Positions 13,858 through 60,495 of a DNA stretch of 64,000 nt are shown here, one piece after another. Below the pieces are notes generated by a model. It was not told the origin of the DNA. It was given only the letters and a program-made list of their open reading frames with translations, and did no database searches. The DNA lies in contig NC_057718.1 of the NCBI RefSeq assembly GCF_004010195.1, positions 4,757,604-4,821,603 on the forward strand, given 5' to 3'. Within the stretch, counting starts at the first letter, position 1. Every line of letters starts with the position of its first letter. The translations under genes and the position numbers were made by a program. The DNA comes from Chiloscyllium plagiosum. Lineage: Eukaryota.

Positions 13858-13896
13858 GAAGTCCTGAAGAAGGGTTACACCCGAAACATTGACTTC
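13858..13896 (+). ncRNA. Minimal type-I hammerhead-like motif, Penelope pLTR family C (stem III decayed)
   Basis: GAAGTC-CTGAAGA-A-GGGT(tac)ACCC-GAAACATT-GACTTC: 6-bp stem I and 4-bp stem II. ACGT to ACAT is consistent with CpG decay. Confidence 0.6.
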
Positions 13897-13947
13897 GCCA
13901 CCTCTTGAAGTTGCCTGGCTTGCTGCGTTCTTCCAGCCTCTTATTTG

Positions 13948-16900
13948 TCCACTACTTCCGCTGGCAGCTCATTCAAAACACACACCACCCTCTGTGTGAA
14001 AAAGGTGCACCTTAGGTCCCTTTTAAATCTCTCCTCTCTCACCTTAAATCTATGCTCTCTAGTTTTGGATTCCCTCCACACAGGGGAAAAGACCTCGAGT
14101 ACTTCCCCTATCCATGCCCCTCATGATTTTATAAACCTCTATAACGTCGCCCCTCAGCCTCTGACCCTCCAGGGAAACTGTCCCAGCCTATTCAGCCTCT
14201 CCCATAGCTCAAATCCTCCAACCCTGGCAACATCCTTGTCAATCTTTTCTGAACCCTTTCAAGTTTCACAACATGTTTCCGATAGGAAGGAAACCAGGAT
14301 TGAACACAATTTTCCAACAGTGGCCTAACCAATGTCCTGTACATCCGCAACATGACCTCCCAACTCCTGTACTCAATACTCTGACCAATAAAGAAAAGCA
14401 TACCAAATGCCTTCTTCACTACCCTATCTACCTCGACTCCACTTTCAAGGAACTATGAACCTGCACTCCAAGGTCTCTTTGTTCAGCAACACTCCCTAGG
14501 ACCTTACCATTAAATGTATAAGTCATGCCCTGATTTGCCTTTCCAAAATGCACATTTATCTGAATTAAACTCCATCTGCCACTCCTTGGTTCATTGGCCC
14601 ATCTGGTCAAGATCCCATTTAACTTCTTTGTGTTCCACTATAACTCCAGTTTTGCTGTCGCCTACAAACTTAATAACCAAAACTTCTTTGTTCACATCCA
14701 AATCATTTATATAAATATGAAGCAGTGGACCCAGCTTGTGGCACAGGCCTCCAGTCTGAAAAGCAACCCTCTACCACCACCCTCTGTCTTCTACCTTTGA
14801 GCCAGTTCTGTATCCAAATGGCTAGTTCTCCCTGTATCCCAAGTGATCTAACCTTGCTGACCAGTCTCCCTTGGGGAACCTTATTGAATCCCCTACTGAA
14901 GTCCATAAAGATCAAGTCCACCACTCTGCCCGCATCAATCCTCTTCATTACTGCTTCAAAAAACTCAATCAAGTTAGTGAGACATGATTTCCCACGCACA
15001 AAGCCATGCTGACTATCCCTAATCAGTCCTTGCCTTTCCAAATACAAGTACATCTGTCCCTTAGGATTCCCTCCAACAACTTGCCCACCACCGATGTCAG
15101 GCTCACTGGTCTTTAGTTCCCTGGCTTGTCCTTACCACCCTTCTTAAACAGTGGCACCATATTAGCCAACCTCCAGTTTTCCAGCACCTTACCTGTGACT
15201 ATCGATAATACAAATATCTCAGCAAGGAGCCCAGCAAACACTTCCCTAGCTTCCCACAGAGTTCTAGGGTACACCTGAGCAGGTCCTGAGGATTTATCCA
15301 CCTTGATGTATTTTAAAACATCCAACACGTCCTCCTCTGTAATATGGACACATTTCAAGATGTCACTATTTATTTCCCCATGTTCTCTAGCTTCCATGTC
15401 CTTCTCCACTGTAAACACTGTTGCAAAATACTCACCCATTTCTTACAGTTCCACACATAGGCAGCCTTGCTGATCGTTAAGGGGCCCTATTTTCTCACTA
15501 ATTACTCTTTAGTCCTTAATGTATTTGTAGAATCTCTTTGGAAACTCCTTAACCCTTTTTGCCAAAGCTACCTCATGTCCCCTTTATGCCGTCCTGATTT
15601 CCCTCTTGAGTATACTCCTACTTGTGCTCCTCCAGGGATTCACTCGATCCCTGCAGTCTACACCTGACATATGCTTCCTTCTTTTTCTTGACCAGAACCT
15701 CAATTTCTCTAGTCATCCAGAGCTCCCTTCACCTACCAGCCTCGCCTTTCACCCTAACAGGAATACACTGTCTCTGGACTCCCATCATCTCATTTTTGAA
15801 GGCTTCCCAATTTCCAGCCATTCCTTTACCTGCGAATAACCGCCCCCGCAATCAACTTTTGAAAGTTCTTGCCTAATATGGTCAAAATTAGCTTTCCTCC
15901 AATTTAGAACTTTAACTTTTAGAGAAGGTCTATCCTTTACCATCACTATTTTAAAACAAATAGAATTGTGGTCACAAGTCCCATAATGCTCCCCTACTGA
16001 CACCTCAGTCACCTGGCCTGCCTTATTTCCCAAGAGTAGGTCAGGTTTTGCAGCTTCACTAGTAGATACAGCCACAGACTGGATACTGAATCAGAACATT
16101 TTCTTGTACACCCTGAGCACAATTCTCTCTTTCCAAGTCCCCCATGCTTTGGCTGATCCAGTCTCTGTTTGGAAAGTTAATATCTCCGACATAATCACCC
16201 TGTTAGATTAGATTTGATTACTTACAGTGTGGAAACAGGCCCTTCGGCCCAACAAGTCCACACCGACCCGCCGAAGCGCAACCCACCCATACCCCTACAT
16301 TTACCCCTTCACCTTCCTGCACATCTTTGGACTGTGGGAGGAAACCGGAGCACCCGGAGGAAACCCACACAGACACAGGGAGAATGTGCAAACTCCAAAC
16401 AGTCAGTCGCCCAAGGCGGGAATTGAACCTGGGTCTCTGGCGCTGTGAGGCAGCAGTGCTGACCACTGAGCCACCCACTATTACTCTTACAGATAACCGA
16501 GATCTCCTTACAAATTTGTTTCCCAATTTCCTGCTGGCTATTGGGGGTTCTAAAGTACAATTCCAATACGGTGATCAATCCTTTCTTATTTCTCAGTTCC
16601 ACCCAAATAACTTCCCAGGATGTACAGCCCAGAATTCCTCCTTACCTACAGCAGTAATGTAATTCCTAATCAGAAACACCACTCACCCTCCTCTTCTCCT
16701 CGCCCCCCCCCACCTTTCTATCCTTCCTATAGCATCTACACTTTGGAACATTAAGCTGCCAGTCCTGTCCGTCCCTGAGCCACGTCTCTGTAATTGCTAT
16801 GATATCCTAGTCCCACATCCCATCCGTGACCTGAGTTCATCTGCCCTCCCCATCAGGTCCCTTGCATTGAAATAAATGCAATTTATTTTATCAGTCCCAA

Positions 16901-17055
16901 TTAGTTCTCTGCTTCGCTCCTGTCTGCCTTGACTATTTGACTTGCTCTTTTTCCCAACTGTATCAGCTCCAGACAGATGTCTCTTCTCCCTATCTCTCTG
17001 CCCTCTTGTCCTCCCCCAACCCCCACTAGTTTAAATCCTCCCAGCTGGCTCCAGC
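13948..17055 (-). mobile_element. Long degenerate CR1 (ORF1 end, APE endonuclease, RT); its 3' end continues at ~12320-12375
   Basis: ELRNKKG..LYFRTPNS, CDHNSICFKI, QHGFVRGKSCLTNLIEFF, VRPLLENCVQSW. Confidence 0.9.
16203..16477 (-). mobile_element. HE1-type SINE nested in CR1
   Basis: Head GTGGCTCAGTGGTCAGCACTGC, B box GGTTCAATTCC, (TCTAA)n tail. Confidence 0.85.
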
Positions 17056-58634: not shown

Positions 58635-60197
58635 TGTTTAAGAAGGACAACGGGGATAATCCAGGAAATTACAGTTTGGTGAGCCTTGTGTCAGTGGCAG
58701 GAATATTTTTGGAGAAGATTTTTGGGGACAGGATTTACTCAAATTCGGAAAAATATGGATTTATTAGGGACAGTCAGCATGGCTTTGAGCATGGGAGATG
58801 TTGTTTACAAATTTGAGGTTTTTGAGGAAGTGACAAAGGTGATTGATGAGGGTAAGGCAGTGTATGTTGTCTACATGGACTTTATTAAAGCATTTGACAA
58901 GGTCCCTCATAGTAGGCTAGTCCAGAGGATTAAATCACATGGAATCCATGGTGAATTGGTAAATTGGACACAACATTGGCTTGGTCACATTGGCTTGTGG
59001 AGGGGTGTTTTACTGACTGGAGGTCTGTGATCATTATTGTTCCACAAGGATCAGTGCTGGAACTTCTGTTATTTGTAATAGATAAAAAATGATTTGGATG
59101 AATATATAGGTGGCCATTTAGTAAGTTTGCAGACAACTCGAAAATTGATAGAGTTGTGGATAGTGAGGAAGGTTGCCAAAGGATACAGCAGGAAATAGAC
59201 CAGTTTGAAAGTTGGATGGATAAATAGCAAATGGAGTTTAATCTGGAAAAGTGTGAGGTGAAACATTTTGGGAGGTCATGTTCAAGAGGAAAGTGTATAA
59301 TTGAGGGCAGAACCCTTCGGAGCATTGTTATACAGAGGGATCTTGGGTGCAAGCCCACAGTTCCCTGAAAGTCACAACACAAGTGGATAATGTGGTAGAG
59401 GGTGTATGGCATTCTTGCCTTCATCAGTTGGGGCATTGAGAATAAAAGTTGGCAAGTCTTTTTGTGGCTCTATAAAACTTCAGTTAGATAACATTTTGAG
59501 TATTACGTGCAGTTCTGGTCACCAAACTATAGGAAGAATGTAGAGGCTTTGGCAGTGGTGCAAAAGAAGTTTACCAGGATGTTGCCTGATTGGAGGGTAT
59601 TAGCTATAAGGACAGATTGGACAAATTTGAATTGTCTTTGCTAGAGCATCTAAGGCTAAGGGATAAACTGGTAGAAATATATAAAATTATGAAGATCATA
59701 AATAGGCTGAGTAGGCAGTCTTTTTCCCGGGATGGAAAAGTCAAATACTCGGGAGTACAGGGTGAAGGTGGGACATGGAAATGTTTAAGAGACCTGTGAG
59801 GCAAAGTTTTTACACAAGAAGGTGATAGGTGCCTGGAATGTGCTGCTAGGGGAGATGGTAGAAGCAGATATGATAGCAATGTTTAAGAGGCATCTTGACA
59901 GACACATGGACAGACAGGGAATAGAGGGATACAGACCATGTGCAGGCAGATGGCATTAGTTTCGAATGGTATCATGGTTGGCACATGCATGGTGGACTGA
60001 CGGATCTATTCCTGTGGGGTATTGTTCCACACCGCAATGTTTAAGAGGCATCTTGACAGACACATGGACAGACAGGGAATAGAGGGATACAGACCATGTG
60101 CAGGCAGATGGCATTAGTTTTGAATGGTATCATGGTTGGCACATGCATGGTGGACTGAAGGATCTATTCCTGTGGGGTATTGTTCCACACCCTATGT
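58635..60197 (+). mobile_element. Degenerate CR1 RT to 3' end with a 158-bp terminal tandem duplication
   Basis: GNYSLVSL, SQHGF, YMDFIKAFDKVPH. 59876-60033 is repeated at 60034-60191. Confidence 0.88.
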
Positions 60198-60460
60198 TCA
60201 AAGGTGTTCTATGGCCTGCCTATAGTGAAGACTGGGCGAGTGGCTATGGAAGGCATATGGAACATGGCTGGTCTGTGGGGAGCAACATCACTGAATAACA
60301 TCGTAAAACCTGGAGTCCATTTTAACTTTAATTTCAAGACTTAAGTCAATAACAATTGTAGAAGTGGTTGGTGATTTGGAGGTGCTGATGTTGGACTGGG
60401 GTGTACAAAGTTAAAAATCACACAACACCAGGTTATAATCCAAACAGGTTTATTTAGAAT

Positions 60461-60495
60461 CACTAGCTTTCAGAGCGCTGCTCCTTCATCAGGTG
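60461..60495 (-). ncRNA. Minimal hammerhead motif (family B) in a solo pLTR (~60370-60500)
   Basis: CAC-CTGATGA-A-GGAGC(agc)GCTCT-GAAAG-CTA/GTG with palindromic AGCT stem III. Confidence 0.65.

Follow-up and report, generated by a model that had tools for sequence, protein, structure and literature searches.

The minimal hammerhead ribozymes (min-HHRs) of Penelope-like elements (PLEs) were described by Cervera and De la Pena in 2014 as consensus families full of covariation (PMC4209133). According to that source they carry a base between positions 9 and 10.1, a G10.1-C11.1 pair and a palindromic 15.2-16.2 step, and they work as dimers with low activity in vitro. The metazoan PLE min-HHRs are also the subject of work by Lunse, Weinberg and Breaker (RNA Biol), as cited in PMC6765202. 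In PLEs, 5' truncation has been reported, along with partial tandem copies, a tail and an inverted truncated copy lying alongside (PMC8557442). Poseidon PAc of Anolis carolinensis has a protein-assisted HHR; in this element RT initiates internally and both DNA strands are extended (PMC11167929). The metazoan non-LTR retrozymes are thought to be derived from PLE pLTRs (PMC7229834; 10.64898/2026.07.22.740005).

Here we describe hammerhead motifs in a 64-kb window, the whole stretch of DNA that was analysed. With a probability of about 0.9 the motifs are minimal type-I hammerheads in the 3'-terminal, pLTR-forming segment of several PLE lineages, and the window copies are 5'-truncated or inverted relics. 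For PLE min-HHRs this interpretation has been in print on every point since 2014 (PMC4209133). The analysis adds natural covariation data for a minimal, dimer-dependent hammerhead and leaves the known working of the motifs unchanged. Judged by titles and abstract openings, no paper naming these families was found in the hammerhead, Penelope and shark literature.

Motif copies in the 64-kb window

About 26 copies or arms of the motif CUGAnGA–N–helix II–GAAA–NNUH were counted, where an initial annotation of the same DNA had claimed more than 15. The motif is present at all eight of the family B and C sites listed there and at all six of its "decayed relatives" (10489+, 11616-, 25433-, 35126-, 47690- and 60756-). 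The constant core that it described does not hold. The core letters considered were C3 U4 G5 A6 N7 G8 A9, G12 A13 A14, A15.1-U16.1 and H17 (not G); they vary among copies, with every specified letter of both boxes found in only 8 of the ~26 and at least one core change in the others. The CUGA box deviates at 46810(-) (CUGCUGA) and at 2969(+) and 56152(-) (GUGAUGA), and the GAAA box at 48071(+) (GACA) and at 2934(-) and 11616(-) (AAAA). Only four copies (44974-, 45464+, 51128-, 60458-) combine an intact core with all three helices, taken here as a helix I no shorter than 3 bp, a helix II no shorter than 4 bp and a helix III with both of its pairs present. In these four U16.1 is present and H17 is C or A.

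The pattern CTGANGA-N4-30-GAAA occurs 18 times in the window against 8.2 expected, a count reached by none of 100 shuffles. A structural descriptor scanned over 124 kb (the window and 60 kb flanks) gave 5 strict and 15 semi-strict matches, against 0 and 1 respectively in the reversed sequence. The features of the window are as follows.

1170..1206, +, family A-like copy whose truncation point lies inside the CUGA box (R1 model 26.1 bits, E 3e-4; BLAST start at +5 relative to C3)
2888..3096, unstranded, head-to-head palindrome of family B, G12>A in arm 2934-2974(-) and C3>G in arm 2969-3009(+); miRNA-hairpin-like in Rfam, below threshold
6468..6623, unstranded, family A (TTAT loop) palindrome with a complete core at 6530-6569(+) and an inverted left arm truncated at G12; predicted fold one long hairpin (-133 kcal/mol) with GAAAC buried
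10489..10530, +, decayed copy (CUGUUGA, AAAA; R1 16.7 bits)
11616..11657, -, family E motif, helix II GGGUC/GAUCC, G12>A
11872..12305, -, fragment of PLE coding sequence from the endonuclease region, lying upstream of the family E motif; tblastn to aa 753-891 of the 893-aa PLE frame (36-47% identity, E 3e-16)
13858..13896, +, family C motif with complete core, 6-bp helix I and helix III ACAU (C-A mismatch); predicted cut 13890/13891
20591..20629, +, family F, decayed (AUGAUGA)
25433..25472, -, family D copy with GAAC, helix II GAGU/GCUU
34595..34662, unstranded, family C head-to-head pair, 34595-34633(-) and 34624-34662(+), with both truncations falling within the CUGA box
35126..35164, -, decayed copy that no longer has a helix II
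44918..45459, -, long family A copy that takes in the final ~90 codons of the PLE frame (at 45190-45459; 89% identity to PLE aa 797-885), a 3' untranslated stretch, an intact hammerhead motif (44974-45013) and a 68-nt tail; 97.5% identical to locus L024 over 523 nt; predicted cut 44980/44979
45438..45559, +, family A copy in head-to-head orientation to the preceding one; intact hammerhead motif 45464-45503, predicted cut 45497/45498
46810..46850, -, family B, A6>C substitution
47690..47732, -, decayed motif with G12>A, belonging to an additional family
48071..48111, +, family B carrying A13>C, with a short inverted arm before it
51072..51249, unstranded, family A perfect palindrome, arms 51128-51167(-) and 51154-51193(+), its junction inside the CUGAAGA box
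51315..51347, -, very decayed, weak copy (R1 17.2 bits, E 0.06)
51806..51983, unstranded, family B palindrome, inverted arm on the left; 51858-51898(+) has a complete core and a decayed helix II
56152..56260, unstranded, family B pair, arm 56152-56192(-) with C3>G and copy 56220-56260(+) with helix III ACCU
60458..60498, -, family B copy, all features intact, one G-U in helix II; predicted cut 60464/60463
60756..60795, -, decayed family D copy (UUAAUGA, AAAA)

The unit begins with the 5' strand of helix I (3-6 nt), followed by CUGAnGA, one unpaired base, the helix II hairpin (4-7 bp) and GAAA. It continues with a 2-bp self-complementary helix III (ACGU or AGCU), H17, the 3' strand of helix I and a tail of 70-120 nt at which the insertions end; two end points, separated by 32 nt, are used. 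Because helix III has no loop, a lone motif would be unable to form it.

Stem pairing and covariation

The stems of the three families are as initially annotated. Helix I is ATTC/GAAT in family A, (T)CAC/GTG(A) in B and GAAGTC/GACTTC in C; helix II is GGGC/GCCC, GGAGC/GCTCC and GGGT/ACCC; helix III is ACGT, AGCT and ACAT. In family C the 6-bp helix I belongs to the 13858 copy only, the frame-attached copies having AGTC (4 bp) or worse, and among the first 100 family C matches listed genome-wide helix III reads CGT in 51 and CAT in 49, a split that speaks for CpG decay. The claim that pairing is preserved in different sequence was borne out by two-sided changes in helices I, II and III, but several of the pairings adduced for it, at 2937-3006 and 51838-51895 (family B) and 34600-34660 (family C), are the arms of head-to-head insertions.

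In a 20-copy alignment, itself fitted to the structure, 70.8% of cells are paired, against 61.8% in shuffles (0 of 500 reach 70.8%) and 20-36% when the partner is slid. The covariation score is 0.304 against 0.171 shuffled, again unreached in 500. Nine of 12 pairs change on both sides, a measure which is not significant alone because 50 of the 500 shuffles match it. When one natural copy per family is compared, positions 1-4 of helix I show three pair types, helix II two to five per position, and positions 15.2-16.2 CG, GC and UG. From -5 to +73 relative to the motif, the alignment of families A and C reaches 74-79%. Because they align along the whole unit, their differences are true compensatory substitutions at homologous sites: pair 1.3-2.3 goes from U-A to G-C and pair 10.4-11.4 from C-G to U-A.

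Among ten family representatives, all have an unpaired base between A9 and G10.1 (A in nine, G in one). The closing pair 10.1-11.1 is G-C in eight and G-U in two, and the palindromic 15.2-16.2 is CG in four, GC in two, UG in one and unpaired in three; these last fit CpG decay. The matched-pair stem changes between families are real. Helices I and II are present and covary, and helix III is a 4-nt palindrome formable only between two molecules. Helix I is only 3-4 bp in family B, and in family A the subfamily with the most copies (loop TTAT) has it interrupted by a U-U mismatch. Folding energies of the bare motif are not unusual against shuffles (z = -0.5, -1.1 and -2.1), and the minimum-energy fold of a 96-nt family A unit lacks helix I.

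Rfam Hammerhead_1 (which we take to be RF00163) and the other Rfam hammerhead families have catalytic core letters in common with the window motifs. Nevertheless the window copies match no Rfam hammerhead model: no hit was obtained in the window at the gathering threshold or at E<=10, nor in 20 mini-loci (1.6 kb, copies only) at E<=10, presumably because the models expect a helix III hairpin.

Penelope-like elements as carriers of the motif

The motif carriers are Penelope-like elements. At other loci of the genome the motif either follows an RT+GIY-YIG frame at a distance of 160–215 nt or stands on both sides of one in direct repeat, and this linkage justifies the pLTR label of the initial annotation. 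The open frame at locus L024 is 893 aa long, with RVT_1 at 33 bits, above the cut-off, and GIY-YIG at 21.2 bits, just below the cut-off of 22.6. A family A motif lies ~160 nt 3' of this frame, and its flanking sequence is the one found at 44974(-) in the window. At L013 GIY-YIG exceeds the cut-off in both arms (22.9 and 23.6 bits), upstream of family A motifs. At L032 two family B motifs stand in direct repeat 2,517 bp apart, and the frames between them share 36% and 29% identity with the family A protein over its aa 162-707; this is the RT part only, a GIY-YIG part not being detectable at that locus. At L034 and L029 a PLE frame, covered by tblastn over aa 263-886, is followed ~190 nt downstream by a family C motif. 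In the window, PLE coding remnants lie upstream of motifs at 45190-45459(-) and 11872-12305(-), and inverted pairs occupy 2888-3096, 6468-6623, 34595-34662, 44918-45559, 51072-51249, 51806-51983 and 56152-56260. PLE hallmarks are thus found in the pLTR-type direct repeats of L032, the inverted truncated pairs and the tail.

Exact core patterns number 65,074 (A), 17,799 (B) and 658 (C) genome-wide, and their reversed controls 0. The very large load predicted from the window is therefore at least 83,531 exact cores, counting these three patterns only. This confirms a cartilaginous-fish-type genome with one of the largest hammerhead-motif loads on record. The PLE families include many copies that are 99-100% identical and many with open frames, and the source families look young.

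By analogy with published systems, two motifs would join through their palindromes and, as a dimer, cleave after H17, acting on the long or tandem precursor RNA of the element. Activity would probably be low and may require the element's own protein. Matched changes were most likely fixed in the master elements of each lineage; we conclude that selection acted on these and not on the window copies, most of which are broken. The latter are most likely dead-on-arrival products of target-primed reverse transcription, as 5'-truncated units and head-to-head inverted pairs, with post-insertion erosion falling largely at CpGs (CGAAA>CAAAA, ACGU>ACAU). The extension of both DNA strands described for PAc fits the head-to-head pairs (PMC11167929).

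A separate observation concerns family A, the most abundant. About half of the copies examined (21 of 43) start at or near the base that opens helix I, 4 nt ahead of CUGA, and these units are complete insertions of about 94-126 nt. This boundary may be a new observation, and it is the only feature that could bear on the role of the hammerhead in the PLE life cycle. A tentative and somewhat unlikely reading is that the PLE template RNA begins at the hammerhead and that RT starting internally near its 5' end mass-produces "solo-pLTR" mini-copies. If RT starts internally at the tail, as in PAc, it would often do so at the first tail, ~90 nt from the RNA 5' end. The sequence at the presumed RNA start, TCATTCC, fits the initiator consensus YYANWYY. 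If true, this would account for tens of thousands of copies, and the ribozyme would be a 5' leader whose cleavage would uncap the RNA. The same start could also result from microhomology between the element's ATT and a target cut with a preference for ATT.

The ~94-126-nt hammerhead-and-tail units might alternatively be a separate SINE-like or retrozyme-like non-autonomous retroposon with masters of its own, mobilised in trans by PLEs, and not truncated PLEs. We regard this as quite unlikely. Target-site duplications of 7-12 bp bound three independent units, animal retrozymes are proposed to be non-autonomous PLE derivatives in a 2026 preprint (10.64898/2026.07.22.740005), and 21 of 43 family A starts lie 1-6 nt upstream of C3, albeit in a sample partly selected by core pattern and containing two copies of one duplication. 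However, the short units are identical to the 3' end of frame-carrying elements, form no tandem array in the window and have no evident internal promoter. There is virtually no chance that the motifs are fortuitous matches to a short degenerate pattern with stems produced by palindromic insertions. By itself the loose pattern should turn up 8 times in a window of this size and several listed sites are palindromes with trivially pairing arms, but strict matches numbered 0 in the reversed sequence against 5, and the reversed patterns 0 against the genome counts above; these controls refute the chance reading. In addition, helix I is native in the non-palindromic copies 44974-, 60458-, 13858+, L024 and L032.

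Instead of being a working ribozyme, the motif could be retained because it folds into a recognition or priming structure for the PLE reverse transcriptase, or could be a hitch-hiker, which we consider doubtful. HHR mutants had no effect on insertion in vitro and Anolis RNA-seq has no ends at the cut site, according to PMC11167929; PLEs without HHRs proliferate well, and the suggestion that "HHRs may simply parasitize PLEs" has been made (PMC8557442). The most successful family A subfamily has a helix I mismatch. Single-cell poly(A) reads cover both strands in proportion to copy number with no molecule ending at the predicted cut 44980/44979, in a library type that is poorly suited and cannot settle the matter. 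Against this, all 11 catalysis-only core letters are kept across unrelated stems and tails. Moreover, the PAc motif cleaves with protein added, C3/G8 mutants abolish cleavage, and PAc RT initiation maps downstream of the motif, not inside it (PMC11167929).

Relationship to described hammerhead systems

The units share with metazoan non-LTR retrozymes their short, non-coding character and type-I hammerheads that would act as dimers. Retrozymes, however, form tandem arrays and circular RNAs, with a small loop on helix III and canonical contacts between the loops of helices I and II (PMC7229834; 10.64898/2026.07.22.740005), whereas the units here are dispersed or inverted and have no helix III loop. 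None of the six tandem arrays in the window contains a motif. Poseidon PAc is likewise a PLE with a hammerhead in its pLTR, and its insertions stop at a defined "tail" downstream of the motif. The PAc frame begins inside the motif, at helix II (PMC11167929), whereas here the motif follows the end of the upstream frame by 160-215 nt.

Compared with the PLE min-HHRs, the host is a genome of the cartilaginous-fish type, copy number is far above the ~4,000-9,000 per vertebrate genome reported in 2014, and helix II has 4-5 bp against 7-8 bp in Schistosoma families (PMC4209133). The likeness lies in the type-I layout with a short helix I (3-6 bp), the unpaired base between A9 and G10.1, the G10.1-C11.1 closing pair, and a palindromic 15.2-16.2 in place of a helix III hairpin. 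As in that account, many covarying consensus families occur per genome, the motif is sited in the repeat 3' of the RT+GIY-YIG frame, and single or oppositely oriented copies are frequent (PMC4209133).

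Hammerhead copies and their genome-wide load

The motif considered here is a minimal type I hammerhead (min-HHR) with a CUGAnGA box, a helix II hairpin, a GAAA box, a palindromic helix III and H17. Its families, among them A to F, are distinguished by their stem sequences. Inspection of the window found the motif at every site that the initial annotation had assigned to it. The loose pattern CTGANGA-N4-30-GAAA matches the window 18 times against 8.2 expected, a number reached by none of 100 shuffles. A structural descriptor was applied to 124 kb (the window and 60 kb of flanks). 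It tolerates no more than one mismatch in the two boxes, demands 3 bp or more in helix II, and grades helix I, helix III and the bulge as well. It yielded 54 candidates (5 strict, 15 semi-strict) versus 16 candidates (0 strict, 1 semi-strict) in the reversed 124 kb.

The covariance model R1, seeded with eight natural copies of families A, C, D and F, finds 17 matches in the window at E < 0.1, of which five belong to the seed set and another has the same sequence as a seed; with the limit raised to E 10, noise is drawn in. Because R1 sees family B weakly (16.4, 11.8 and 8.7 bits), its count includes 3 of about 9 family B arms, an arm being one side of a head-to-head pair. The R1 matches and the family B copies make up about 26 copies or arms, in agreement with the earlier claim of more than 15 copies in 64 kb. 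The core, previously described as constant, is so among families but not among copies. Single copies carry A6>C, A13>C, G12>A or C3>G, and every specified core letter is present in 8 of the approximately 26. Runs of N occupy 8213-8224 (12 bases) and 12872-13511 (640 bases). The complete core is accompanied by all three helices in four copies:

44974-45013, minus strand
45464-45503, plus strand
51128-51167, minus strand
60458-60498, minus strand

The very large genome-wide load anticipated from the window is borne out by a search of the 3.56-Gb assembly with exact core patterns of families A, B and C. There are 65,074 matches for A, 17,799 for B and 658 for C, with strands equal in number, and the reversed patterns have none. 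Among the first 100 of the 658 family C matches, 51 have CGT and 49 CAT, a mixture that fits CpG decay in an older family. The common change G12>A (CGAAA to CAAAA) is likewise a CpG transition.

Penelope-like carriers and insertion anatomy

Outward walks that began at paired motifs in other parts of the genome led to coding sequences of Penelope-like elements (PLEs), which combine reverse transcriptase and GIY-YIG in one frame. Family A units have about 94 nt in common, a stretch that opens 4-5 nt ahead of CUGA and closes 68 nt past the predicted cut; beyond it they diverge. Together, the frames and motifs in the following loci are what defines a Penelope-like element.

PLE coding sequence associated with hammerhead motifs, at genomic loci (L numbers) and in the window
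L013: head-to-head pair; each arm has GIY-YIG above the Pfam cut-off, with the motif about 0.4 kb downstream
L024: 893-aa open frame; RVT_1 at 33 bits, GIY-YIG at 21.2 bits, just under the 22.6 cut-off
L032: family B motif present as two direct copies, 2,517 bp apart, with PLE-like frames between
L034 and L029: PLE-like coding, aa 263-886, 30-60% identity; family C motifs about 190 nt downstream
Window 45190-45459, minus strand: aa 797-885 of the PLE protein, 89% identity; the 44974 motif lies downstream
Window 11872-12305, minus strand: residues of the PLE endonuclease region; the family E motif at 11616 lies downstream

In L024 the family A motif lies about 160 nt downstream of the frame and has the same flank as the window copy at 44974 (minus strand). 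The L032 frames are colinear with the family A protein over aa 162-487 (36%, E 1e-56) and aa 487-707 (29%, E 2e-26); an endonuclease part was looked for in this copy and not found. The 5' side of long copies is concealed by N stretches (1,348 in L024, 1,970 in L025 and 1,290 in L033). A Pfam search of the genome for GIY-YIG gave one weak match among the best 150 of 14,403 candidates, a low number since just those 150 were scored. The family A PLE looks young and very abundant (for example L024 and L025), and some of its open frames are several hundred codons long. With a 250-aa endonuclease-region query, the best 150 of 186,609 candidates are all 90-100% identical, and 146 of these 150 have no internal stops.

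None of the tandem arrays in the window holds a motif, so the copies are not retrozyme arrays. The initial annotation had named families A, B and C after the PLE terminal repeat, or pLTR. The name is apt in that PLE frames are linked to all three, and too strong for the window, where no copy flanks a frame as a strict pLTR. At 12410-12525 lie head-to-head family C tails without a hammerhead, which overlap a 36-nt, 2.1-copy tandem at 12425-12501.

Other coding fragments were also found by Pfam in window frames:

248-643, plus strand, RVT_1 fragment
2168-2596, minus strand, RVT_1 fragment
6624-7064, minus strand, RVT_1 fragment
14706-15131, minus strand, RVT_1 fragment
16941-17474, plus strand, RVT_1 fragment
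18428-18817, minus strand, RVT_1 fragment
45551-46222, plus strand, AP-endonuclease frame

The AP-endonuclease frame adjoins a family A copy and was rejected as a part of it. The PLE protein has no match at this frame or at any of the RVT_1 fragments, all of which may be LINE remnants.

About half of the family A copies sampled have their 5' boundary at the first base of helix I, with the boundary sequence TCATTCC. In a sample of 43 copies, many from loci picked via the core pattern and two (in L012) representing one duplication, 21 start 1-6 nt before C3, 10 inside the motif and 12 farther upstream, with BLAST ends accurate to about 2 nt. Most of the 10 that start inside the motif are inverted arms. 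Family B window copies likewise stop 3-12 nt before C3. In RNA run X20 (single-cell poly(A); a sample of about 2%, with 1,007 reads aligned), 87 reads switch to unrelated sequence exactly at window position 45011, which is this same boundary. Target-site duplications of 7-12 bp, abutting ATTC, bound three independent short units (94-126 nt):

L002, 1497-1591
L008, 1439-1532
L012, 1227-1318

A start point at helix I fits the 5' start of a template RNA. It also fits preferential joining at ATT, and at every junction element and target share 2-3 nt of ATT microhomology. At the other end, the tail of the CTGT-loop subfamily of family A has AATAAA about 10 nt before the unit end (44918-44945, minus strand; 45535-45559, plus strand), and the TTAT subfamily is without it.

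Head-to-head pairs in the window have variable junctions, and units end at two alternative points 32 nt apart. Both features match PLE insertion anatomy as given in PMC8557442 and PMC11167929. A family C copy adjoins (GTTCTAT)n at 13830-13857, and the copy at 10489 adjoins (GA)n at 10450-10480. These neighbours fit the microsatellite insertion bias of PLEs described in PMC8557442.

Stem covariation

Pairs were counted in 20 window copies, two helix III pairs included, in an alignment fitted to the structure and made of copies related to each other. In it 70.8% of 209 cells hold standard pairs, versus 61.8% after shuffling (matched by 0 of 500 shuffles), and a shift of the 3' partner by 1-3 columns leaves 20-36% paired. 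The covariation score is 0.304 versus 0.171 shuffled (0/500), and two-sided changes occupy 30 cells versus 13.8 (0/500). Nine of 12 pairs have some double change, which alone is not significant (50 of 500 shuffles do as well). A MAFFT alignment of all families was left out of the counting; it displaced family B by one column. Pairing reaches 96.5% in helix II, 76.3% in helix III and just 56.1% in helix I, where many copies are truncated or fused to an inverted arm.

At the family level, one natural copy per family gave 10 representatives. All 10 are paired at position 2 of helix I (U-A 5, A-U 3, C-G 2). Position 3 is C-G in 3, G-C in 3, U-A in 1 and unpaired in 3, and pair 15.2-16.2 is C-G in 4, G-C in 2, U-G in 1 and unpaired in 3. 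Families A, C, D and F can be aligned over the whole unit (A and C are 74-79% identical from -5 to +73), and family B has the core alone in common with them. Since A and C align end to end, two differences between them are real compensatory substitutions of homologous pairs: from A to C, pair 1.3-2.3 goes from U-A to G-C, and pair 10.4-11.4 from C-G to U-A. The compensatory stem changes proposed between families are supported by the score and by these two substitutions.

Families D and F have half-compensated states. In the most numerous subfamily of A, with the TTAT loop, helix I contains a U-U mismatch (ATTC...GATT). The GAAGTC/GACTTC helix I attributed to family C is found in the 13858 copy only; the copies that adjoin frames have AGTC or worse. 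The bare motifs have unremarkable folding energies (z = -0.47, -1.07 and -2.05), and the minimum-energy fold of a 96-nt family A unit lacks helix I.

Predicted cleavage and comparison with known hammerheads

As helix III has no loop, two motifs would pair through ACGU or AGCU and be cut after H17 as a dimer. Dimer pairing through the helix III palindrome is described in PMC4209133 and PMC6765202. The literature suggests that activity would be low in vitro. For the one reconstituted PLE, PMC11167929 reports that the motif requires the element's protein and is dispensable for insertion. X20 reads map to both strands, and the short unit has 4 times the depth of the sequence upstream, tracking copy number. 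Molecule starts or ends do not pile up in this single-cell poly(A) sample of about 2% of the run; a further run, X21, gave 0 reads.

Palindromic copies are unable to form the motif; the region 6472-6620 folds as one hairpin of -133 kcal/mol. Near-perfect hairpins of 35-65 bp from head-to-head copies, at 2922-3019, 6496-6595, 10428-10577 and 51814-51918, score in Rfam as sub-threshold miRNA precursors. If transcribed, the head-to-head hairpins would give long double-stranded RNA. The comparison with Rfam hammerhead models suggested by the initial annotation gave no match in the window or in mini-loci of the copies, where scans returned only sub-threshold miRNA-hairpin look-alikes of palindromic copies. 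Among the titles and abstract openings returned for hammerhead, Penelope and shark, none concerns these families.

A further family (L031, 1755-1800, minus strand) has a 7-bp helix II, GUCGCCU/AGGUGAC, with an unpaired base G, and pairs ACGU in helix III and GCA/UGC in helix I. It resembles the Schistosoma min-HHRs with a long helix II. Metazoan PLE min-HHRs have G10.1-C11.1 and a palindromic 15.2-16.2, and their copies include single ones and oppositely oriented ones 100-700 bp apart (PMC4209133). The Chiloscyllium plagiosum motifs share all of these published traits.
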